From NCBI GenBank assembly GCA_043815185.1, contig JBDRJF010000026.1, forward strand, positions 773 to 64,772: a stretch of 64,000 nucleotides of DNA, read 5' to 3'. The position numbers and the translations under genes were made by a program. The DNA is from Candidatus Omnitrophota bacterium. Its GTDB lineage: Bacteria > Omnitrophota > Gorgyraeia > Duberdicusellales > 4484-171. The notes under the pieces are model-generated. The model saw nothing but the letters and a program-made list of their open reading frames with translations, was not told the DNA's origin and did not search any database. This document shows, one piece after another, positions 45,799 through 64,000 of this stretch; within the stretch, counting starts at the first letter, position 1; every line of letters begins with the position of its first letter.

Positions 45799-46993
45799 AA
45801 CCGAGTCTCGAAAGTTAATATCTTCCTTAGGGGTAAGCCCCGAAGGTGTAAGAATTTTATCTCCCAAAACTATACAAACAGCTTTTAAAATTGAAGGGAT
45901 CAAATCTTGGGAAGCAAATATAATAAAGCAGCACCTTCTTTCTTTAGGGAGCGATGCAGCGATAGAGCGAAGAGCTTTGGTAAAAGATATAAAGACTTCG
46001 GTTTTAATCTTTGGCAATTTAAGCCAGTTAAGAAAGCTCTCTGAAAAATTAAAAACCCAGCCTTTTAGTTTAAGAGAAATATCCGAAAATATTACAGCTT
46101 TCTTAGATAATTTGAATAAGGAGAGCTTTATTTTTCGGGCTAGAAACAAAGTATTGAAGATCAGTAAACCAATCATCTGCGGGATAATAAATACAACTAC
46201 TGATTCTTTTTCCGGAGACGGACTGTTAAGAAAAGGGTTTACTAAAGCTAAGATTTTAACCTCTATAGCAAGTTTAGCCTTAGGCAAGGCCGAAGCGATG
46301 ATAAAAGCCGGTGCAAAAATAATTGATATCGGCGGAGAGTCAACCCGGCCTTTCTCAAAGCCGCTTAGGCCGCAAGATGAAATAAGGAGAGTTATACCCA
46401 TCTTAAGAGTTCTGCGAAAGGAGTTTAAAAAAACTCCTCTTTCTGTCGATACCTATAAGTATTCAGTAGCAAAAGCAGCAGTGGCTGAGGGAGCTGATAT
46501 AATTAATGATATTACAGCTTTGAGGAGCAGCCCTCGGATAGCAACCCTGATTAAGAAATATAAATTGGGCTGTATATTAATGCATATGCAAGGTAGGCCT
46601 CGGACTATGCAGATAAATCCCGGTTATAAGGATGTGACCGCTGAGATAATGGATTTCTTTAAAGAAAGGCTGGAATTTTGCAGTTCAAAAGGCATCAAAA
46701 AAACACAGATCCTGATTGATCCCGGGATTGGTTTTGGTAAGCGCCCAGAAGACAATAATAAGATTATCAGCGAACTCTATAAATTTAAGGTTTTAGGCCG
46801 GCCGATTTTTTTAGGGTTGTCGCGTAAATCTTTTATTGGTAAGATACTCAAGGCAGAGGTTGGTGAGCGTTTAATCGGGACAATTGCAGCTAGCACAGTA
46901 TCTTTAGTTAATGGCGCTAACATTTTAAGAGTGCATGACGTAAGAGAGACCGCTCAGGCCATAAAGGTGGTCTCAAAAATTACTAATAATTGA
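45767..46993 (+). CDS. folP: Dihydropteroate synthase with an N-terminal ~130-aa extension
   Basis: Pterin-binding domain (GIINTTTDSFSGDG, DIGGESTRP, DPGIGFGK, RVHDV). The start overlaps ftsH by 32 nt and is uncertain. Confidence 0.88.
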   Translation: MRISPLRVKNETESRKLISSLGVSPEGVRILSPKTIQTAFKIEGIKSWEANIIKQHLLSLGSDAAIERRALVKDIKTSVLIFGNLSQLRKLSEKLKTQPFSLREISENITAFLDNLNKESFIFRARNKVLKISKPIICGIINTTTDSFSGDGLLRKGFTKAKILTSIASLALGKAEAMIKAGAKIIDIGGESTRPFSKPLRPQDEIRRVIPILRVLRKEFKKTPLSVDTYKYSVAKAAVAEGADIINDITALRSSPRIATLIKKYKLGCILMHMQGRPRTMQINPGYKDVTAEIMDFFKERLEFCSSKGIKKTQILIDPGIGFGKRPEDNNKIISELYKFKVLGRPIFLGLSRKSFIGKILKAEVGERLIGTIAASTVSLVNGANILRVHDVRETAQAIKVVSKITNN

Positions 46994-47751
46994 TGGAATT
47001 CATGAAGTTTATAATGTGGAAAGCTGTCATTGAGATATTAATTCTTTGGTTTGTTGTCTATAGGATATTTCTTTTCTTAAAGGGCACAAAAGCGGTTTAT
47101 CTGTTAAGAGGGATAATTATTCTGGTAATTTCTCTATTTGCTTTTCAAATGTTAGGTTTACCTGTTCTAACTCGGCTGCTTACTTACCTTTTTGCTTTCT
47201 TTTTAATTTTTGTGGTTATAATTTTCCAGCCGGAGTTAAGGGACGGGCTCATACACTTAGGTAAGCGGCATATTTTTTCTATTGAACCGAAGCGGGAAGA
47301 AATTGAGAAAACTCTAAGGGAAATTGTTTCTGCCGTAGGGGCTCTCTCACGGAGAAAGACCGGTGCTCTTATTGCCGTAAAGCGAGAAATAGGACTTAAA
47401 CGCTATATTGAGAGCGGAGTAGTTTTGAACGCAGAAATTACCTCCGAGTTATTGCAGAATATTTTTTATCCTTCAGCCCCCCTGCATGATGGAGGGGTAA
47501 TAGTTGATGAGACAACAGTATTGGCTGCTTCTTGCCTCTTTCCGCTTAGCGACAATCCTGGTTTAGAGAGAGCTGTAGGGATGCGCCATCGGGCAGCAGT
47601 AGGTCTTTCTGAGAATTCAGATGCACTGGTCATCGTGGTCTCGGAAGAGGATGGGGCGATATCCTTAGCTATAAATGGACAGTTGACACGGAACTTGACA
47701 CCTAATGATTTATTAACTATCCTTAAAGGACAATTAACAAAACCCCACTAA
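46990..47751 (+). CDS. cdaA: Diadenylate cyclase CdaA (DisA_N domain, membrane-anchored)
   Basis: Three N-terminal TM helices. TGALIAV, PLHDGGVIV, RHRAAVGLSE and VVSEEDGAIS motifs. Confidence 0.9.
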   Translation: MMEFMKFIMWKAVIEILILWFVVYRIFLFLKGTKAVYLLRGIIILVISLFAFQMLGLPVLTRLLTYLFAFFLIFVVIIFQPELRDGLIHLGKRHIFSIEPKREEIEKTLREIVSAVGALSRRKTGALIAVKREIGLKRYIESGVVLNAEITSELLQNIFYPSAPLHDGGVIVDETTVLAASCLFPLSDNPGLERAVGMRHRAAVGLSENSDALVIVVSEEDGAISLAINGQLTRNLTPNDLLTILKGQLTKPH

Positions 47752-53504: not shown

Positions 53505-53888
53505 TTAACTAGAACTAATTTCTACTACAAGGTTTTTAATTGCATCCAGATCTTCTTTTTTTATCTGGGAGAATTCTATGCCGGTATCATAAAGAAAGCG
53601 GCTTTGAATACAGGGGTCCTTTTTGGTAAATACCCATCTTACCCGGCCCTTACAGATTATTGGATTTTGGTCTATTCCATAGAGGTTAAGTTCGACCGTT
53701 GAGGAGAGCTTTATCTTTTCCTCAATTATAAACCTTATGCCGCCGGCGCTAATATTTTCGATATAGGTAGGTAGTATATGTTTTTTAGGCCCTGGGATAA
53801 CTATCTCACAAGGACATTTTATCCTTACGAATTTTCTTCTTTCTTTACTATCCCAGTTCACAAAACACCTCCGATTAAAATGTAGCAT
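53505..53888 (-). CDS. PilZ domain protein
   Basis: RRKFVR (RxxxR) and NISAGG (D/NxSxxG) c-di-GMP-binding motifs. Confidence 0.8.
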   Translation of the reverse strand: MLHFNRRCFVNWDSKERRKFVRIKCPCEIVIPGPKKHILPTYIENISAGGIRFIIEEKIKLSSTVELNLYGIDQNPIICKGRVRWVFTKKDPCIQSRFLYDTGIEFSQIKKEDLDAIKNLVVEISSS

Positions 53889-53980: not shown

Positions 53981-54083
53981 TGGGTTTAGATTCCGGGGTT
54001 TAAGATGTTTTTAAAGGCATCTCGGATATCTATCCTTGATGCCGAAAAAAACAAGGAATAACCCTGAATAATTGCTTTTTGTT

Positions 54084-54159
54084 CGGGAGGTGGCGCAGCT
54101 CGGATTAGCGCACTTGAATGGGGTTCAAGGGGTCGCGGGTTCAAATCCCGCTCTCCCGA
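54084..54159 (+). tRNA. tRNA-Pro (GGG)
   Basis: Acceptor CGGGAGG/TCTCCCG, anticodon arm CTTGA-ATGGGGT-TCAAG, T arm GCGGG-TTCAAAT-CCCGC. Confidence 0.9.
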
Positions 54160-54230
54160 TATAGTGGTTATTTGAGGGGTTTGAGATATCCGGAGAGTGG
54201 TAGAGATAGCACAGAGAAAAGGGGTAGAGA

Positions 54231-55018
54231 AAAGGGGTCACCTCCCTTTTTCTTCCTTCTTTTTGGGTCTTCCTGGATTCAAACATTTCAATGACCGGTT
54301 TAATATTTTTTCCGCGTTTTTAATAAATATCTCTGATCCTACTACTAAACCCCTTTTTGTTTTTAAGCGCATCTCATTCACCATCACATTATCTTCTTCA
54401 CAAAGATACGTTTTCCATTCTCTCGCATTCATATCCAATGAATCCTTTAATGCGATAAATTCTTTAACCGGTATTTCTGTATGAATAGGTGCGCTCGACC
54501 AGTCATAATTCCAGGCATTATCCACTACCTTTGCCCGTACAGGGTTTCTTTCTACATAGCGTATGGCACGGTATAAATGTGTTTCGTCTAACAGGCATGA
54601 AAAATAACGCCCCTGCCACACATGACCATGTTGTTTTCGCTTTCGATTTACATATTGGGAATATCTCATGGTAAGGGTATTTAAAACCATTCCCAATGAT
54701 TTCTTATCGTGAGGAATTACTATAATATGCGTATGATTATTCATCAAACAGTAAGCAAGTATATCTATATGATATTTCTTTGAATATTCCTCGAGCCAAA
54801 AAAGGTACTGTCTAAAATCTTTAGGTTCTTTAAATATCTTTTGTTGGTAATTTCCTCGCTGAGTTATATGGTGGGCTTCATCGGGTATGACTATTCTGAC
54901 TTGTCGCGGCATGTGTTACCTCCTTTACATAATAGACGTTTTAAGCGGCAGAATTCTTTCATTTTTTAAAATTTTTTGAAACGATAGAGGAGTTAAAAAA
55001 AAGGGAGTTGACCCCTTT
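54231..55018 (-). mobile_element. RAYT / IS200-like unit: Y1 transposase gene bracketed by 21-nt inverted repeats
   Basis: The reverse complement of 54231-54251 (AAAGGGGTCACCTCCCTTTTT) matches 54998-55018 (AAAAAGGGAGTTGACCCCTTT) at 20/21. The left repeat covers the last codons of the gene. The unit starts 72 nt after tRNA-Pro. Confidence 0.7.
54238..54912 (-). CDS. REP-associated tyrosine transposase-like protein (Y1_Tnp / IS200 superfamily, COG1943 type)
   Basis: HHITQRGN, AYCLMNNHTHIIV (HUH motif), GHVWQGRYFS and RYVERNPVRAKVV...YDWSS (catalytic Tyr region). Confidence 0.85.
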   Translation of the reverse strand: MPRQVRIVIPDEAHHITQRGNYQQKIFKEPKDFRQYLFWLEEYSKKYHIDILAYCLMNNHTHIIVIPHDKKSLGMVLNTLTMRYSQYVNRKRKQHGHVWQGRYFSCLLDETHLYRAIRYVERNPVRAKVVDNAWNYDWSSAPIHTEIPVKEFIALKDSLDMNAREWKTYLCEEDNVMVNEMRLKTKRGLVVGSEIFIKNAEKILNRSLKCLNPGRPKKKEEKGR

Positions 55019-55056: not shown

Positions 55057-55164
55057 CTTGACAAAAAGTGATTCCTGGAGGACAATAAAAATAATTTGTC
55101 CTGCATTTGCTGTATTTATTCTGAATAATATAAGGGTTTGAGGCCGATTAAAGGAGGAAAAGCA

Positions 55165-55740
55165 ATGGAGCATGCAAAAATGCTTAAAGTAAATCAAGTG
55201 GCTAAGTTTCTCCAGATGAATAGAATGACTATTTATAAGCTGGTTAAATCTGGAAAGCTTCCCGGTGTAAAAATCGGAAGTGAATGGAGATTTGATAAAG
55301 ACAAACTTCAAGACTGGCTAAATGGGCATACAGGAATCAAGAGACCGCAAGGCAGAATATCTAAAAAGACCCAGAAAGAGAAGGTGTTAATAGTAGATGA
55401 TGATCCGGGCATAAGAGATTTATTTATAAAGCTTTTAAAAGATGATGGCCAAAAGGTATATATTGCATCTTCGGGCAAAGAGTGTATGGAGTTAATAAAA
55501 GAATATAATCCTAACGTTGTTTTACTTGATTTAAAAATGGCTGATATTGACGGAATAGATACTTTGCGTTTAATCAAAAGTTACAATAAAAAAATAGCGG
55601 TTATAGTAATTACCGCCTATGCTACTATGAATACTGCAATTGAGGCAATGAAATTAGGGGCTTATGACTACATCGCTAAACCTTTTGATAATGATAAAAT
55701 AATAGCCTTAGTAAGAAAGGCGGTCAAAACGACAAAATAG
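55165..55740 (+). CDS. Response regulator with an N-terminal excisionase-type (HTH_17/MerR-like) domain and a C-terminal receiver
   Basis: LKVNQVAKFLQMNRMTIYKLVKSGKLPGVKIGSEWRFDKDKLQDWL, then receiver VLIVDDDP...LLDLKM...TAY...KPF. The ATG at 55165 follows the RBS AAAGGAGG. Confidence 0.85.
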   Translation: MEHAKMLKVNQVAKFLQMNRMTIYKLVKSGKLPGVKIGSEWRFDKDKLQDWLNGHTGIKRPQGRISKKTQKEKVLIVDDDPGIRDLFIKLLKDDGQKVYIASSGKECMELIKEYNPNVVLLDLKMADIDGIDTLRLIKSYNKKIAVIVITAYATMNTAIEAMKLGAYDYIAKPFDNDKIIALVRKAVKTTK

Positions 55741-55768: not shown

Positions 55769-57913
55769 ATGAAAGAAAAGATTAAAGACATCAGCGAGCG
55801 CAAGCAGACAATGGAGTTGCTGAAAGAAAACGAAGAATATTATAGAATATTTGCATCGTATCAACAGGCGATTTCTGAGCTGCGTAAGTTTTATCTAGCA
55901 GATGCTACTTTTGAACAGATGATTCAGAAAACACTTAATTTAATTATTGAAGAATTTGGTTATTATATGGCTTGGTTTGCCGAATTGATAGAGAAAGAAG
56001 GAGTAATCCTTCCCAAGTTGTGGGCTGGAAAATACGAAAAATACCTCGATGGATTGCGGCTTGAATATGAGAGCGATAAAAAAGATGCTAAATGTGCTAT
56101 GAGTATTGCAATTTTGACGAAAGAACCCTTTGGCTATGCCGATCTTGAACACGATAAAGATTTTGAAAAATGGCGTGCTTTTGCCTTGCAATACGGGTAT
56201 CGTTCAAATCAAGCAATTCCGTTTATTATGGATGGTAAATGCAAGAGTGCATTTTTGATTTACAGCAGTAGGCCTTTTGCCTTTAGCGAAAGACTGGTTG
56301 AATACCTCAAAGGCATAGTGGATGATGTGGCTATGGTTATTGAAAATACCAACCGGCGCAAGCAGGCTCAAAATGCGCTGCAGCAGGCCCACGACGAGTT
56401 GGAAATACGGGTTGCAGAACGTACGAAAGGGCTACGCAAGAGCGAGGAGTTTAATACGCAGATAATCGAGAGAAGCTTTGACGTAATATTCATGCTTGAT
56501 GTTAGAGGATTTGTTGAATATGCCTCCCCGGCGACAAATAAGATCTTAGGATATACTGTTGAGGAGGTAAAGGGTAAACACTTCACTAACTACGTTCAAT
56601 TAGTAGATCACCAAAAGGCATTAAGAATATTTACTAAAGTAGCAGGTGGAGAGGTAGCTGAAAACTTTGAGTTGCGTTTAGGAAAGAAAAACGGCTCCAT
56701 GATATACGTTAGGGTAAATGCCGCCCCGTTAATAGAGGGAAAGAAAGTAATTTCAATCATGGGATATTTTAATGATATCACCGCACGTAGAAAGAGAGAA
56801 GAGGAAAACAGGAGTCTAAAAGAATATAATGAAAATATAATGACAAGTATCCCCACAGTTATTATAACCTGCGATAAAAAATTAATAATAAAATCAATCA
56901 ATAAAGCCCGATGTACCATTTGTGGCCGAAAGAAAAGCGGTCATGTCGGAAAACACCTATCTGAAATATTAGGTCCCAAAGTGATTAAAAATGAAGAATT
57001 GGATAAGAAGATTTGGGAAGTTTTCAAGACAAAAGAGCCATCCCAAGAAATGCAAATCAGACATAATTTTCCCAAAACAGGAGCGAAAGTATTAAACCTT
57101 AAAATAGTTGGCATATCTCATGCAGGAAAAGAAGAAGTTTTACTGCTCCTGAACGATATTACCGAAAAAAAAGAATTGCAAGAGAGGATAATCCAAGCAG
57201 ATAAGTTGGCTTCAGTGGGAGAAATGGCCGCAGGATTAGCCCACGAGATCAATAATCCCATAGCTATTATTAAAGGCAATGCTCAATATATGCAGAAAAA
57301 GTTGCAGCTATTATTATCATCAAAAAAGTTTGGAAAAGATGAGATTAAGGAGTGTGCTGGAATTTTAGGAAGGATTGCTGAGGAAGCAGAAAGATGCGGC
57401 AAGATAACTTCCGGGCTTCTGCAATTTACCAGAAGGGGCGAAGATAAATTATCACTGTTAGATATTAACCAGGAATTAGCTACTGTCTTAGCGGTTACTG
57501 AACATAATTTATCATTGGCCAAGGTTGAGGTAAATCAAAAGTTATTCACCAGATTGCCAAAGGTATTGGGCCATTCAGGTCAGCTAAGACAAGTTTTCAT
57601 GAACATAATTCTCAATGCTCAAGATGCCATGGCTCAGGGCGGGGTTTTGACTGTCGAAACTTCTTATGACAAAAATAAGAAAAAGGTAGAAATTGATTTT
57701 ACTGATACCGGCCACGGTATTTACAAAGAGAATCTCGATAGGCTATTCGATCCTTTCTTTACTACTAAAAAGCCAGGTAAAGGGGTAGGGTTAGGTTTAA
57801 GTATATCTCATGGCATTATTACAGCCTATAAAGGCAGTATCAAGGTTGCAAGTAAACTGGGCCAAGGGGCTATGTTTAGGATTAGGTTGCCGCTTGGACC
57901 AAAAAAAAAGTAG
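55769..57913 (+). CDS. Sensor histidine kinase (GAF-like + PAS domains + HisKA/HATPase)
   Basis: H-box AAGLAHEINNP, N-box NIILNAQDAM, G-boxes DTGHGI and GKGVGLGLS. PAS region IIERSFDVIFMLD... Confidence 0.9.
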   Translation: MKEKIKDISERKQTMELLKENEEYYRIFASYQQAISELRKFYLADATFEQMIQKTLNLIIEEFGYYMAWFAELIEKEGVILPKLWAGKYEKYLDGLRLEYESDKKDAKCAMSIAILTKEPFGYADLEHDKDFEKWRAFALQYGYRSNQAIPFIMDGKCKSAFLIYSSRPFAFSERLVEYLKGIVDDVAMVIENTNRRKQAQNALQQAHDELEIRVAERTKGLRKSEEFNTQIIERSFDVIFMLDVRGFVEYASPATNKILGYTVEEVKGKHFTNYVQLVDHQKALRIFTKVAGGEVAENFELRLGKKNGSMIYVRVNAAPLIEGKKVISIMGYFNDITARRKREEENRSLKEYNENIMTSIPTVIITCDKKLIIKSINKARCTICGRKKSGHVGKHLSEILGPKVIKNEELDKKIWEVFKTKEPSQEMQIRHNFPKTGAKVLNLKIVGISHAGKEEVLLLLNDITEKKELQERIIQADKLASVGEMAAGLAHEINNPIAIIKGNAQYMQKKLQLLLSSKKFGKDEIKECAGILGRIAEEAERCGKITSGLLQFTRRGEDKLSLLDINQELATVLAVTEHNLSLAKVEVNQKLFTRLPKVLGHSGQLRQVFMNIILNAQDAMAQGGVLTVETSYDKNKKKVEIDFTDTGHGIYKENLDRLFDPFFTTKKPGKGVGLGLSISHGIITAYKGSIKVASKLGQGAMFRIRLPLGPKKK

Positions 57914-58586: not shown

Positions 58587-58988
58587 ATGAAAACTAATAT
58601 TGATAAGGGTAAATTTATCGAAAGAAGGCGGTTCCCGCGCTTAAAGGATAATTTATTTATTTTTTACCGCTTTTTGGCCTCTGTCGCAAAAGATTGCAAG
58701 GCCATCACTCAAGACGTAAGTGCCAGTGGTTTCTGCTTTGAATCAGAAACAAGGTTGTTACCGTTCAGTGAGATGGAAGTTGAGATATATCAACCGCTGA
58801 CCCATTCAAAAGAGATAATTTTTTCTATGCCAATTATAGCTAGGGTAGTTTGGGTAAATAAAATAGACAGCGGGCAATTTGAGCAGGGTAATAACAAGTA
58901 CAGAATAGGAGTATATTTTTCAAGAATTCATAAAATAGATCAGGAGAAAATTATAAATTATGTTCAAACCCGCCGATCAAAAACATAG
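58587..58988 (+). CDS. PilZ domain protein
   Basis: RRRFPR (RxxxR) and DVSASG (DxSxxG) motifs. Confidence 0.8.
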   Translation: MKTNIDKGKFIERRRFPRLKDNLFIFYRFLASVAKDCKAITQDVSASGFCFESETRLLPFSEMEVEIYQPLTHSKEIIFSMPIIARVVWVNKIDSGQFEQGNNKYRIGVYFSRIHKIDQEKIINYVQTRRSKT

Positions 58989-59251: not shown

Positions 59252-59830
59252 ATGTTGGATGTTCAAGCTGTAGCTAAGTATTTGCAAATGCATCGAATGA
59301 CTATTTATAAGTTAGCTCGCAGGGGAGAGTTGCCGGGAATAAAAATAAGCGGCAAATGGAGGTTTGATAAGGAACTTCTCGAGGATTGGACGTCAAAGGG
59401 TGTCAGAATAGGTAAGAAGAGGAGCCGGTTTGTAATATATAAAGTGAAGAAAAGAAATAATAAAGTTTTAGTGGTGGATGATGACCCGGGAATTATTGCG
59501 CTATTTAAGACAGTCCTTAAAGATTTAGACTGTAAGATTTTTTCTGCTAACTCAGGAGAGGAGGGTTTAAGGATTATAAAAAAAGAGAAGCCGGCCGTGG
59601 TTCTTCTAGACTTAAAATTGCCCGGGATAAGCGGCATTGAAACCTTGCGTTTAATTAAAAGATTTGATAAAGATGTAGCAGTTATTATGGTTACCGCCTA
59701 TGGCACGCTGAATACTGTGATTAAGGCGATGAAATTGGGCGCTCAGGATTATATAGCAAAACCTTTTGATCTGGATAGGATAATTTCATTAATAGCTGAG
59801 ACACTTAAGATCACTGTATTGATTAAGTAA
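59252..59830 (+). CDS. Response regulator, paralog of 55165..55740 (excisionase-type HTH + receiver)
   Basis: Same architecture with long identical runs (MTIYKL, WRFDK, DDDPGI, VVLLDLK, TLRLIK, AMKLGA.DYIAKPFD). Confidence 0.85.
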   Translation: MLDVQAVAKYLQMHRMTIYKLARRGELPGIKISGKWRFDKELLEDWTSKGVRIGKKRSRFVIYKVKKRNNKVLVVDDDPGIIALFKTVLKDLDCKIFSANSGEEGLRIIKKEKPAVVLLDLKLPGISGIETLRLIKRFDKDVAVIMVTAYGTLNTVIKAMKLGAQDYIAKPFDLDRIISLIAETLKITVLIK

Positions 59831-59953: not shown

Positions 59954-60334
59954 ATGCCAGCTAAGGAAAGTATTATTAAAGAATTATCAGAAGCCTGTTT
60001 TAACCCTAATTATTTAGTAAAAAGGTTAAATAGAGTTCTTTTTAGAGATGCCCAACGTACTTCAGGCCGTATACATTTCCATTTCCAAAACAAATCAGAC
60101 CATATTATTCTTATCTGGTTTAAAGGAAGGCTAAAAGACATAGTGGTTAAATCGCCCGATTGTAAACAAAGTGAATCGGTGAAATGGAATGATTCTCAGT
60201 TTTTCAATTATCAACCGGAAAATGTTCTTGAACAACTATATCAACAAATTGTGCAGATAGAAATAGATGAGCATAATTTTAGAAAGAGATGGCTAGCCTA
60301 TGATGAATTTATTAAATGGCTGATCAAGAGTTAA
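59954..60334 (+). CDS. Hypothetical protein
   Basis: 126-aa ORF with no recognisable motif. Confidence 0.4.
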   Translation: MPAKESIIKELSEACFNPNYLVKRLNRVLFRDAQRTSGRIHFHFQNKSDHIILIWFKGRLKDIVVKSPDCKQSESVKWNDSQFFNYQPENVLEQLYQQIVQIEIDEHNFRKRWLAYDEFIKWLIKS

Positions 60335-60565: not shown

Positions 60566-60814
60566 ATGGGAGTGAAGATTAAGAAACTTGATGTCCAGAA
60601 GTTAGTTCAAGATACGAAATTGATGGATGAGATTATCAAGAGAGTTTTGGATAGCCCTAAGGCGATGGATGAATTAGCCAAAGAAGTTGCTGATAAACTT
60701 GTTGATATTTTAGAAGATGACCCGAAGTTTAAGAAAAAGATACTTGATGCAGCCTTAACCAGTCCAGATTTTAAGAAAGGTATTATTAAAAGGGTAGCGA
60801 AAGAATCTGATTAA
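60566..60814 (+). CDS. Hypothetical small helical protein
   Basis: RBS GGAAGGAGG upstream. 82 aa, Lys/Asp-rich and helical. Precedes the STAS gene. Confidence 0.45.
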   Translation: MGVKIKKLDVQKLVQDTKLMDEIIKRVLDSPKAMDELAKEVADKLVDILEDDPKFKKKILDAALTSPDFKKGIIKRVAKESD

Positions 60815-60839: not shown

Positions 60840-61184
60840 ATGGATTTAAAAGTTAGGGTTGAAGAACTTCAACAAGGATATATTCTTATTGAGTTGGTAG
60901 GAGATATGGATGCTTATACTTCCAAGGGGTTTAAAAAAGAGGTAGAGGCTTTAATCAAAAGAAGAAAGTATAAGTTAATCGTTGATGTTGAAAAAGTTAG
61001 TTGTATTGACAGCGTGGGAGTAGGAATCCTCTTAGGCGCACTTAAGAAGACCCGAGAAAAAAAGGGAGACCTTTGGCTTATTTACAATAAATCAAAAGTA
61101 AAGAGGTTTCTTGAGCTTACAGGATTGAATAAGAATTTTAAAGTATTTAAAAATAGACAGCAAACTTATAAGAAACTTAAGTAA
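60840..61184 (+). CDS. STAS-domain protein (anti-sigma-factor antagonist-like)
   Basis: SpoIIAA-like pattern: GDMDAYTSKGFKKEV...VSCIDSVGVGILLG...LTGL. Confidence 0.8.
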   Translation: MDLKVRVEELQQGYILIELVGDMDAYTSKGFKKEVEALIKRRKYKLIVDVEKVSCIDSVGVGILLGALKKTREKKGDLWLIYNKSKVKRFLELTGLNKNFKVFKNRQQTYKKLK

Positions 61185-61311: not shown

Positions 61312-61878
61312 ATGTTTAAAAAAGAGAAAGATAGAAAAAAGAATGTTTCCCAAGATAAGATAATTGATGTAGACGTCTCTATGCGGGGAGACCTTAAATT
61401 CAGCGAGCCGGTTAATTTAAGGATAAATGGTTCCTTTGAGGGGGAATTAGATATTAAAGGGAGTTTAACTATCGGTAGGAATGCCAAAGTTAAGGCTAAA
61501 ATAAACGGTGATGCGGTTATTATTGAAGGGATGGTTAAGGGTGATATTAACGCCAGAAAATCTATTGAGCTTATCCCGTCAGCAAAAGTAATTGGGTCTA
61601 TTATTACTCCTTCTTTAACAATAAAGGAAGGAGCTCTATTCAAAGGAACTTGCGATATGGGAGTTGAAAATGACTTTTTTGAGGAGATCGGAGTAGGTGA
61701 AGGATTTTTAAATACCAGGGAAGTAACAGAATACTTAGAAGTTGATATATCGAGGGTGAGAAAATGGGCCCAGGAAGGGAAAATCCCAGCTGAGAAACAA
61801 GGAAATAATTGGGTATTTAATAGGCAAGAGATTGAAAAATGGTTATCGGAAAGCAAAATGCCCAAAGAGGATAGCTGA
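61312..61878 (+). CDS. Bactofilin-domain protein fused to a C-terminal excisionase-type HTH
   Basis: Bactofilin beta-helix repeats (INGSFEGELDIKGSLTIGRNAKVKAKINGDAVIIEGMVKGDINA...LTIKEGALFKGTCDM), then LNTREVTEYLEVDISRVRKWAQEGKIPAEKQGNNWVFNRQEIEKWL. Confidence 0.8.
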   Translation: MFKKEKDRKKNVSQDKIIDVDVSMRGDLKFSEPVNLRINGSFEGELDIKGSLTIGRNAKVKAKINGDAVIIEGMVKGDINARKSIELIPSAKVIGSIITPSLTIKEGALFKGTCDMGVENDFFEEIGVGEGFLNTREVTEYLEVDISRVRKWAQEGKIPAEKQGNNWVFNRQEIEKWLSESKMPKEDS

Positions 61879-61984: not shown

Positions 61985-62737
61985 ATGAGGGAGTTTGAAC
62001 AGATGCCGCCTGATTTATTAGCTCTACATAAAAAGAAGTTTAATAAACTAAAGAGGGTTCGGGCTATTCTCTTGGTTGTGAGCCTAGCGGGTATTACGCT
62101 GGCAAGCGTTTTTTTTATCCAGAAACAAATAGAGAGACAAAAGAGAATCATAACCGAAGGAAAGCTCGAAACGACAATCGAGGCTAAGAAGGTTGTTGAG
62201 AATAACTTGACCGCGAGGACTAAACAGTGGGAAGGAGAAAGAGCAAAAGCGCAAGTTTTGACAGAAAAATTAGATAATGAAATTCGCAGGAGGCAACAGA
62301 TTGCCGCAAAACTGGATAAAATAGCACAACAACTAGCCCAAGAGCAGCGGCACAGAGGCGGCTTAGAGCAAGAAGTAAAGGAGACAGAGGAGAAATTAAC
62401 TTTGGCTATAAAAGCCAAAGCTGAAATCGAAGCCAAATATAAAGAATTGCAAACCAACTCTATTGGAGTGATAGAGCTTGAAAAGATTGTGGTAACAGCC
62501 AGGCCGCCCTTAGAAGGCAGAGTAGTACTGATAAATCGGGAGCAAGAATTTATATTGGTGGATTTAGGCAGTAAAGATAAGTTAGAGATTGGAGAGGTGT
62601 TGGCTGTTTATCGTAATAATGATCTTATTGGAAGAGCCAGGATTGTGGAAGTCCGGGAAACTTTATCAGCAGCAACCATACTCCATGAATTAAGGTGGAA
62701 TGAAATTAGCGAGGATGATATTGTTAAGCTATTCTAA
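61985..62737 (+). CDS. Membrane-anchored coiled-coil protein with a small C-terminal beta domain
   Basis: One TM helix (AILLVVSLAGITLASVFFI), a long heptad-rich region, and a C-terminal GRVVLINREQEFILVDLG...IGRARIVEV segment. Confidence 0.5.
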   Translation: MREFEQMPPDLLALHKKKFNKLKRVRAILLVVSLAGITLASVFFIQKQIERQKRIITEGKLETTIEAKKVVENNLTARTKQWEGERAKAQVLTEKLDNEIRRRQQIAAKLDKIAQQLAQEQRHRGGLEQEVKETEEKLTLAIKAKAEIEAKYKELQTNSIGVIELEKIVVTARPPLEGRVVLINREQEFILVDLGSKDKLEIGEVLAVYRNNDLIGRARIVEVRETLSAATILHELRWNEISEDDIVKLF

Positions 62738-64000
62738 GTGCTTATTTTGTTTTCTTTTGGGGATAGGGATTTTTATAACACCTATTGTTGCCCAAGAACA
62801 GAAGGCTATCTTTGCGCAAGAGAGTAAAGGAAGACCTGATATAACAAGAATTGTGATTTCCGTTTCTGGTCCGGCTAAGTATAAACACTACCAAAAAGAA
62901 AAACCGCCTGGTTTAGTGATAGAATTCAAAACTCGCAATGTAATCAGTCAGATAGAGAAAGAGGCGATAGTCAAACAAGGAGTAGTAAAAAGTATCCAGG
63001 CTCAATATTATCGAAGAGCCGGAAGCATAAAGGGAAAGAGAGTATATCCCTTGAAGTCTTTGACTTTTGAATTGCTGCAGTCTTCTGTCTATAGGATTGT
63101 TCAAACCGATAATTCAATTATTGTGGAGATAGAAAATCCAGTTGACTTAAAGGTTGAAGAAGTGTCTGGAGGTGAAGTGGAAATAACTGATACAGTACGA
63201 ACCGGGGAGGAATTAAATGAGAAGAAAAAGGCACTTCAGGAAGCTATATTAGAAGCCGAAATCAAGCTAGAAGAAGAAAAGAAGAAAATTAGAGGAGAAC
63301 TTAAAAGTGAAGCATTAGTTCCTGCTGAAGTTTTAGCCAGCCCGGAGAAGGCAAAAGAAATAATTCCGGCCTTAGATAAAAAAAAAATAAAAAGACCCTC
63401 GATTCCTTCTAAAATACACCCCGGTTCCTTTAAAGAAGTAATTTTTTTAATATTTTTTACCGGCATTGGTGCTTTAATTGGTGCTCTAGGTGCCTTGCTG
63501 TGGAAGTTTCAAAGGCAAAAAAATAAGAAAAAGACAAATTTGACCTCTAAAGGAATAGTGAAAGAAGTTCAAGACTATGTAAGCCAATTGAGACAAAAAG
63601 ATGCCTGTTTAAGAGAGGAACTTAATAAGTATAAAAACTTAGAACAGCGTTTAGCCGAGAAAAATCAAATCATCCAAGAGCAGCAGAGTCAAAGCCAGCA
63701 ACTCCAAGAACAACTTAACAAGACCAATAAGGAAGCAGAAGAAACCTTTACTTTAGCCGCTCATTTAGAACAAAAACTGGTTCAAAAGGAACAGCAATTT
63801 CAAGAAAAAGAAGCAGTCTTAGAAGAATTATCGCAAAAAAGCAGGGTTATAGAGGGGGTTAATAAGGAATTCCAAGAATTAAAAGCCAGCTATCAGACTC
63901 TTGAGCAATCTTTAAAGGAAAAAGAAGGGTCACTCATCGGCCTTAAGGAACATAAGGAGAATTTAAAGGAGGAATTATCATCTAAAAGAGAGTTGATCGG
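62715..64000 (+). CDS. AMIN-domain protein with a TM helix and long cytoplasmic coiled coil (3' end outside window)
   Basis: My own translation; the ORF is absent from the track because it has no stop in the window. Signal peptide MILLSYSKCLFCFLLGIGIFITPIVAQ. AMIN-like block ITRIVISVSGPAKY...PPGLVIEFK...YRIVQTDNSIIVEIENP. TM helix VIFLIFFTGIGALIGALGALLW. Gln/Glu/Lys-rich coiled coil to nt 64000. Confidence 0.6.
   Translation, partial: MILLSYSKCLFCFLLGIGIFITPIVAQEQKAIFAQESKGRPDITRIVISVSGPAKYKHYQKEKPPGLVIEFKTRNVISQIEKEAIVKQGVVKSIQAQYYRRAGSIKGKRVYPLKSLTFELLQSSVYRIVQTDNSIIVEIENPVDLKVEEVSGGEVEITDTVRTGEELNEKKKALQEAILEAEIKLEEEKKKIRGELKSEALVPAEVLASPEKAKEIIPALDKKKIKRPSIPSKIHPGSFKEVIFLIFFTGIGALIGALGALLWKFQRQKNKKKTNLTSKGIVKEVQDYVSQLRQKDACLREELNKYKNLEQRLAEKNQIIQEQQSQSQQLQEQLNKTNKEAEETFTLAAHLEQKLVQKEQQFQEKEAVLEELSQKSRVIEGVNKEFQELKASYQTLEQSLKEKEGSLIGLKEHKENLKEELSSKRELI

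Follow-up and report, generated by a model that had tools for sequence, protein, structure and literature searches.

A bactofilin carrying a MerR/Xis-type winged helix-turn-helix domain forms a phylum-wide family in the Omnitrophota

The gene at the centre of this analysis encodes, in a single polypeptide, a bactofilin that carries a winged helix-turn-helix (HTH) domain of the MerR/Xis type at its C-terminus. It lies in a 64,000-nucleotide stretch of DNA from a Candidatus Omnitrophota bacterium (referred to here as the window), and it belongs to a fusion family which is distributed across the phylum Omnitrophota with conserved gene partners, a fact that had been overlooked when the window was earlier interpreted from its letters and open reading frames (the sequence-only reading). 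The protein is an uncharacterised variant of a known scaffold: that reading knew of no characterised example, and none was found in the searchable literature, which contains no characterised bactofilin-HTH_17 fusion, no paper that combines a bactofilin with an excisionase, and just a passing mention of bactofilins in Omnitrophota. Bactofilin scaffolds are known to recruit their clients by way of short tails or adaptor proteins, and a folded domain of nucleic-acid-binding type within the polymer subunit would be a new way in which a bacterial cytoskeleton could be coupled to a membrane adaptor or to DNA. The phylum has, to our knowledge, no genetically tractable member; the fusion is conserved in hundreds of its species, provides a compact 188-residue construct for direct testing, and allows basic (K151) and acidic (E/D151) recognition helices to be compared as they occur naturally within one family. 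The gene and its parts are listed below.

61312..61878, + strand: bactofilin-HTH_17 fusion gene, ATG start, 188 aa; the product is 100% identical to NCBI MFH1519941.1 (Candidatus Omnitrophota MAG)
61312..61359, + strand: N-terminal tail, aa 1-16, MFKKEKDRKKNVSQDK, which resembles a bactofilin membrane-targeting sequence
61360..61659, + strand: bactofilin beta-helix, aa 17-116, which includes F110 (Pfam, AlphaFold2, Foldseek, residue alignment)
61660..61704, + strand: flexible acidic linker, aa 117-131, net charge -5, which contains the short helix NDFFEEI
61705..61851, + strand: HTH_17 / excisionase-type winged helix, aa 132-180, with recognition helix ISRVRKWAQEG and wing GNNWVF

The direct fusion proposed by the sequence-only reading is borne out by the presence of both Pfam domains, each above its threshold, within the one open reading frame. 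The bactofilin domain (PF04519) is matched over aa 17-114 (E=8.8e-25; 87.3 bits against a gathering cut-off of 27.9), and HTH_17 (PF12728) over aa 132-180 (E=1.8e-11; 44.6 bits against a cut-off of 27); the nucleotide range that had been assigned to the HTH, approximately 61711-61851, is correct and corresponds to aa 134-180. The NCBIfam model TIGR01764 ("excisionase family DNA-binding") also scores above its cut-off (36.4 bits versus 28.8). An AlphaFold2 model computed from a 25-sequence alignment has a mean pLDDT of 82.7, and it contains beta-strands over aa 17-115 (pLDDT >90 over aa 20-110) preceded by a low-pLDDT segment at aa 1-14, a short helix at aa 120-125, a low-confidence hinge at aa 125-128, and, over aa 135-179, the helix-helix-strand-strand-helix arrangement of the winged-helix topology a1-a2-b1-b2-a3 (helices 135-142, 146-155 and 171-179; strands 161-163 and 166-170). 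The linker helix NDFFEEI is kept among the closest relatives, which are referred to below as the window's clade, in the forms DFLESM, DFLEDL and NFLEEI.

The bactofilin half has features expected of a polymer-forming subunit. The modelled beta-helix matches the solved structures of BacA (2n3d; TM 0.81, rmsd 2.0) and TtBac (6rib; TM 0.77) in a Foldseek search of the PDB, and a residue alignment to solved bactofilins places F110 at the position of TtBac F105 and BacA F130, in the C-C polymerisation interface, where arginine substitutions impair polymerisation (bioRxiv 10.1101/617639; PMC12448750). This position is hydrophobic (F, L, I, M or V) in 209/209 non-redundant relatives. In the non-polar filaments that bactofilins form, subunits contact each other tail-to-tail and the repeat measures approximately 5.7-6 nm (bioRxiv 10.1101/617639), and the global consensus for bactofilin membrane targeting is MFSKKKK (PMC12448750), which the N-terminus of the fusion protein, MFKKEKDRKK, resembles; most relatives begin instead with MA[LF]R or MRRR. 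The closest relative, at locus L006, retains (T)FKKEK in frame behind a Shine-Dalgarno-like AAGGAGA, with ACG in place of ATG. The annotated start of that gene is a downstream GTG (L006:2721-2769), and the ACG at the start-codon position may reflect either non-canonical initiation or a sequencing error.

The possibility that two separate genes had been joined by a sequencing or assembly frameshift, which the sequence-only reading had itself raised, is excluded for practical purposes, because in each of the best 120 of the 438 homologues found in a search of 5.8 billion proteins (drawn from NCBI, JGI, ENA and Logan assemblies) both Pfam domains lie in one open reading frame of 165-193 aa (120/120). 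Relatives of the fusion are encoded, in independent assemblies, at 495 loci in a scan of one genome per GTDB species, and both domains as well as the region between them align across the homologues. The wider survey of this architecture that had been suggested thus places it in hundreds of genomes: the 80 of the 495 loci that were listed lie one to a genome, and nearly all are labelled Omnitrophota, a few being third-party bins labelled Planctomycetia. In the databases the homologues go by no name other than "polymer-forming cytoskeletal protein" or "excisionase family DNA binding protein". When 1.84 billion representative sequences were searched with a profile, the full-length fusions fell into approximately 20 clusters at 50% identity and no bactofilin-HTH family unrelated to this one was found, and a metagenome scan for further close relatives returned only two distant fragments.

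The main clade of the family is well sampled, and its fusion proteins are 45-54% identical to the window protein. Its gene order is GatB, a CtpB-like S41 peptidase, TsaD, a small MgtC-family protein, the fusion gene, which often overlaps the gene upstream, and a gene of approximately 100 codons; the GatCAB-CtpB-TsaD-MgtC block lies upstream in roughly 50-60 of the 80 listed loci, and TilS-FtsH lies downstream in a few. The product of the downstream gene is predicted to be a tail-anchored membrane protein because it consists of an N-terminal HTH_17 domain, a basic linker and a C-terminal hydrophobic helix. An equivalent gene is present in approximately 80 loci, of which three examples are as follows.

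L001:6538-6831: tail-anchored HTH_17 partner
L004:6509-6805: tail-anchored HTH_17 partner
L089:5548-5841: tail-anchored HTH_17 partner

A hydrophobic stretch (Kyte-Doolittle >= 1.6) is found in 77/80 distinct partner proteins and is preceded by a DFFYFNDFY-type motif in 58/80, and the recognition helix of the partner is acidic, like that of most fusion proteins. The pairing of the fusion with this small HTH_17-TM protein occurs in 83/86 loci, with gaps whose median is approximately 20 bp and which are mostly <60 bp, and it is kept even where the upstream genes are different, in members with 33% and 41% identity to the window protein.

The window belongs to a smaller clade with a different neighbourhood. 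Among the matches listed, close relatives form only three clusters (P0002, 72% identity; P0003, 63%; P0004/P0281, 66%), and the window, L006 and L092-L094 share the same gene order: an 82-aa helical protein, a STAS protein, the fusion, a TM/coiled-coil protein of approximately 240 aa and a large envelope protein. This cluster, which is conserved in three lineages, is represented in the window by the following genes, together with a further upstream gene that has a homologue in a related locus.

59954..60334, + strand: 126-aa protein, with a homologue in the related L096 cluster
60566..60814, + strand: 82-aa helical protein, the conserved upstream partner (identity 78% in L006, 67% in L092)
60840..61184, + strand: STAS-domain protein immediately upstream of the fusion gene (identity 73-76% in L006 and L092)
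61985..62737, + strand: 250-aa protein, the downstream neighbour, conserved in L092 and L006 at 47-54% identity; its TM helix is N-terminal and its beta domain C-terminal, and it also has a coiled coil
62715..64000, running past the window end, + strand: large envelope protein comprising a signal peptide, a region with a sub-threshold AMIN-like match, a second TM helix and a coiled coil

The 250-aa protein is a candidate bitopic client or anchor of the filament. The gene for the large envelope protein overlaps that of the 250-aa protein by 23 nt, and its orthologues are 598-789 aa long, with a C-terminal PilZ domain in L092 and L096; the orthologue at L006:4159-6528 contains an inserted Mrr_cat restriction-endonuclease domain at aa 305-413. 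The cluster contains no Rfam families or tRNAs, and the 64-kb window contains no tail-anchored HTH_17 gene, no second bactofilin and no GatB, CtpB, TsaD, MgtC block; of the wider main-clade neighbourhood it has just TilS and FtsH, which lie 17 kb upstream. A neighbour-joining tree nests the window's clade inside the family, but it is indicative only, because it has no bootstrap support.

Homologues of the approximately 240-aa, the large (C-terminal PilZ) and the 126-aa proteins are also grouped, at L096:1-8309, directly after a gas-vesicle (gvp) gene cluster, with a 134-aa bactofilin (L096:7905-8309) of the same subfamily which is 56% identical, begins with MFKKEDK and lacks the HTH. The occurrence of this HTH-less protein in a homologous cluster indicates that the HTH is not needed for the core role of the cluster and is an optional appendage of the scaffold. 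Many other "HTH-less" representatives resemble frameshifted reads and were left out as evidence, so that L096 is the only such case used. The C-terminal appendage of the bactofilin subfamily is modular (none, PilZ or HTH). Homologues of the 250-aa and large AMIN-like/PilZ proteins also lie immediately after a gvp cluster at L097:437-4265, and P0154 is a 253-aa bactofilin-PilZ fusion with a related bactofilin domain.

Whether the HTH half is likely to bind DNA must be judged from features that point in opposite directions. In a Foldseek search against the PDB its model matches the RdfS excisionase, BldC, RacA, the Pukovnik Xis and a MerR regulator, and its best sequence match among solved structures is RacA (E 0.23), followed by BldC (E 1.7), both of which are weak. 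Alignment on the pattern V-D-x-x-x-V-x-K-W sets K151 at the position of BldC R30 and RacA R19, a residue which contacts bases and whose alanine mutants lose DNA binding (PMC5859096; bioRxiv 10.64898/2026.03.06.710092), and the recognition helix also has R148 and R150, which add charge beside K151. Wing residues K157, K162 and R171 are conserved family-wide in the 209 relatives, as is K/R168. At this last position, which is Lys/Arg in 80% of relatives and corresponds to Arg48 of BldC, the window protein has Val. Position 151 itself is Glu/Asp in 165/209 family members (79%) and Lys/Arg in 9/209. The net charge of the HTH is -1 in the window protein, with a mean of -2.7 across the 209 relatives, whereas the HTH_17 domains of the two adjacent response regulators have net charges of +6 and +4. 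Within the window's clade, the HTH, at 59-74% identity, shows as much conservation as the bactofilin domain, at 67-75%. The proposal of the sequence-only reading that the fusion tethers DNA to a scaffold is thus strengthened in part, by the BldC/RacA/Xis fold and by a lysine at the essential arginine position, and weakened in part, by the acidic charge, V168 in the wing and the Glu/Asp at position 151 in most relatives. Because the residues and fold speak for DNA binding while the acidic charge speaks against it, binding appears plausible for the window's clade and doubtful for the family as a whole.

The DNA around the gene yields no candidate binding site by either a repeat search, which detects only short, weak repeats near the fusion gene, or a count of RacA ram-like hexamers. 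A copy of the ram-like palindrome GCCGGC does lie 20 bp upstream of the gene, but the hexamer is not specific to the fusion locus, because 26 copies occur across the whole window (7.2 expected from dinucleotide shuffles); this window-wide enrichment is likely codon-driven. Promoter and terminator scans around the fusion gene gave results at the level of chance.

A related proposal was that the fusion reads a DNA motif in common with two response regulators encoded upstream, both of which, as had been recognised, contain HTH_17 domains.

55138-55740: response regulator with N-terminal HTH_17 and C-terminal receiver (inverted architecture)
59252-59830: response regulator with N-terminal HTH_17 and C-terminal receiver (inverted architecture)

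The first of these is followed by a GAF-PAS histidine kinase (55769-57913). A motif common to all three proteins is not supported, since the fused HTH shares no more than 27-29% identity with the HTH_17 domains of the two regulators, and their recognition helices, which are identical to each other (RMTIYKL), are unlike the ISRVRKW of the fusion. On these comparisons the two regulators may share a DNA site, and the bactofilin fusion probably does not share it.

The reading which we prefer, and to which we would assign a probability of about 0.4, is that a membrane-associated bactofilin filament bearing an array of HTH domains holds a chromosomal region and scaffolds neighbouring envelope proteins. 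The fusion protein would form non-polar, membrane-associated filaments in which, given the tail-to-tail contact between bactofilin subunits, the C-terminal HTH domains would be displayed as two-fold-related pairs spaced about 6 nm apart. In the window's clade, where the recognition helix is basic (R148, R150, K151), the array would on that account bind DNA by avidity, and a chromosomal region would be held at the membrane scaffold, making the protein a one-polypeptide analogue of RacA-DivIVA or RocS/RicO, while the filament would also scaffold the neighbouring bitopic envelope proteins. The conservation of the HTH within the clade, of the cluster in three lineages and of the fusion in hundreds of genomes also speaks for this reading. 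Against it stand, besides the acidic features of the HTH given above, the weakness of its sequence matches to RacA and BldC, the HTH-less bactofilin of the L096 cluster and the absence of a candidate binding site near the gene. A broader proposal, which is rather unlikely, is that the Omnitrophota possess a two-part system in which the HTH-bearing bactofilin polymer and the tail-anchored HTH membrane protein tie the chromosome, or other nucleic-acid or protein cargo, to the inner membrane, and that the window's clade is a derived version rewired to a STAS/coiled-coil envelope module. If true, this system would provide the first case of a DNA-binding domain built into a cytoskeletal filament.

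A serious rival, though somewhat unlikely as matters stand, is that the HTH_17 domain does not bind DNA but is a protein-protein adaptor that docks partners: in the main family it would dock the tail-anchored HTH_17 protein encoded downstream and so fasten the filament to the membrane, and in the window's clade it would dock one of the coiled-coil or STAS proteins of the cluster. Such a role is favoured by the acidity of the HTH across the 209 relatives, 79% of which have Glu/Asp in place of the essential Arg, by the similarly acidic recognition helix of the partner and by the near-invariance of the pairing, which extends to members sharing no more than 33-41% identity with the window protein. 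Equivalents of the invariant L142, V144 and W152, moreover, take part in the head-to-tail protein interface of BldC (PMC5859096), and the modularity of the C-terminal appendage in the subfamily is also in keeping with an adaptor. The window's clade, however, has no adjacent tail-anchored partner and a more basic recognition helix, and the family-wide conservation of the wing residues K157, K162, K/R168 and R171 is what would be expected for contacts with the DNA backbone.

The protein could alternatively be a transcription regulator gated by polymerisation, which binds promoters only when off membrane filaments, or the reverse, and so acts as a version in cis of the BacR-BacEF switch; this we consider improbable. 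Its precedent is BacR (YhbD), an HTH protein encoded beside bactofilin genes which binds bactofilins and then loses DNA binding (PMC13649987), and it draws further on the fusion gene's own 127-bp upstream region, which contains a short direct repeat (D3), and on the STAS partner-switching proteins and two-component genes nearby. It is difficult to reconcile with the position of the main-clade gene inside a housekeeping operon (TsaD-MgtC-BacHTH), often overlapping its neighbour, which is atypical for an autoregulator, and with the lack of a DUF4004 match in Pfam at E<=1, the acidic recognition helix of most members and the chance-level promoter scan. Very improbable is a mobile-element excisionase or recombination directionality factor, or a MADS MAD1 defence HTH, fused to a beta-helix. 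The domain-level matches to TIGR01764, to PHROG excisionase families and to PADLOC mad1 would suggest such an origin, as would an integrase approximately 3.2 kb upstream of the cluster at L092 and an IS200 transposase 6.4 kb upstream in the window, but the PADLOC and PHROGs matches are to generic HTH only, and MAD1 (NF047737), the best NCBIfam name, scores 40.7 bits against an equivalog cut-off of 80. The window cluster contains no integrase, MADS or other defence genes, and the fusion family is single-copy in each of the 80 listed genomes, with core chromosomal synteny in most. An excisionase role and membership of MAD1 are rejected on these grounds.

Comparison with known systems assigns the fusion protein to the bactofilin and HTH_17 families and to none of RacA-DivIVA, RocS/RicO, BacNOP-PadC-ParB or BacR-BacEF. 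It shares with the canonical bactofilins (C. crescentus BacA, T. thermophilus TtBac) PF04519, the beta-helix and the C-C interface Phe, its N-terminus resembles their MF-K-K type, and it is like BacA-PbpC in that its gene neighbourhood also contains predicted bitopic membrane proteins, but its C-terminus is a folded winged HTH where theirs is a short disordered tail. The chromosome anchors of the Firmicutes, RacA, RocS and RicO, likewise combine a small MerR-type winged HTH, a self-associating module and a membrane or pole anchor (putative in the fusion), and RacA provides both the best solved-structure match of the fused HTH and a basic residue, R19, at the position of K151. The self-association module of the fusion, however, is a bactofilin beta-helix rather than a coiled coil, the domain order is reversed, with the membrane peptide N-terminal and the HTH C-terminal, the similarity to RacA is not significant (E 0.23), and the fused HTH is acidic overall; membership of this group was accordingly rejected, and the fusion is regarded as an analogue.

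The Myxococcus BacNOP-PadC-ParB/ParA system offers the likeness of a bactofilin polymer linked to chromosome organisation, a link which is putative in the fusion. As the sequence-only reading correctly stated, the connection to DNA is made there by adaptors, the separate proteins PadC and ParB (PMC5703909), whereas the putative DNA-binding domain of the fusion lies within the bactofilin itself, which has no ParB-like domain. In B. subtilis, BacR shuttles between membrane and nucleoid and is sequestered at the membrane by the bactofilins BacE/BacF (PMC13649987), so that an HTH is again coupled to bactofilins, but BacR is a separate DUF4004 protein, while in the Omnitrophota protein the HTH is covalently fused; membership of the BacR/DUF4004 family was rejected on the Pfam result given above. 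BldC and Xis/RdfS share the fold (TM 0.65-0.81) and the V-D...W core of the recognition helix, and they act on DNA as cooperative multimers, which display on a filament would mimic. The fused HTH differs from BldC in having no basic wing equivalent to H46-R47-R48 and in the replacement of the base-reading Arg by Lys, and it has no link to integrases or developmental promoters.

Several further observations concern the surroundings of the gene and of its relatives. A tRNA-Pro gene (54083-54160) in the window is directly followed by an IS200-type Y1 transposase (54238-54912, - strand), and the GC content is slightly lower from approximately 52 kb to the window end (0.36-0.37 versus 0.39-0.41). 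Genes for cyclic-dinucleotide signalling are frequent around the locus, since stand-alone PilZ proteins (53505-53888, - strand; 58587-58988, + strand) and a CdaA-type diadenylate cyclase (46990-47751, + strand) occur in the same 15 kb. Two further proteins, P0183 and P0226 (417 and 479 aa), are built from HTH_17 units repeated 7-8 times in tandem. Upstream of the gene for the most divergent fusion (P0279, approximately 28% identity; L095:290-5567) are those for a Volactin-type actin-like protein (E 2e-91) and for a ParA/MinD-like ATPase with a CBM48/AMPK1_CBM domain, and this neighbourhood looks cytoskeletal or partition-like.
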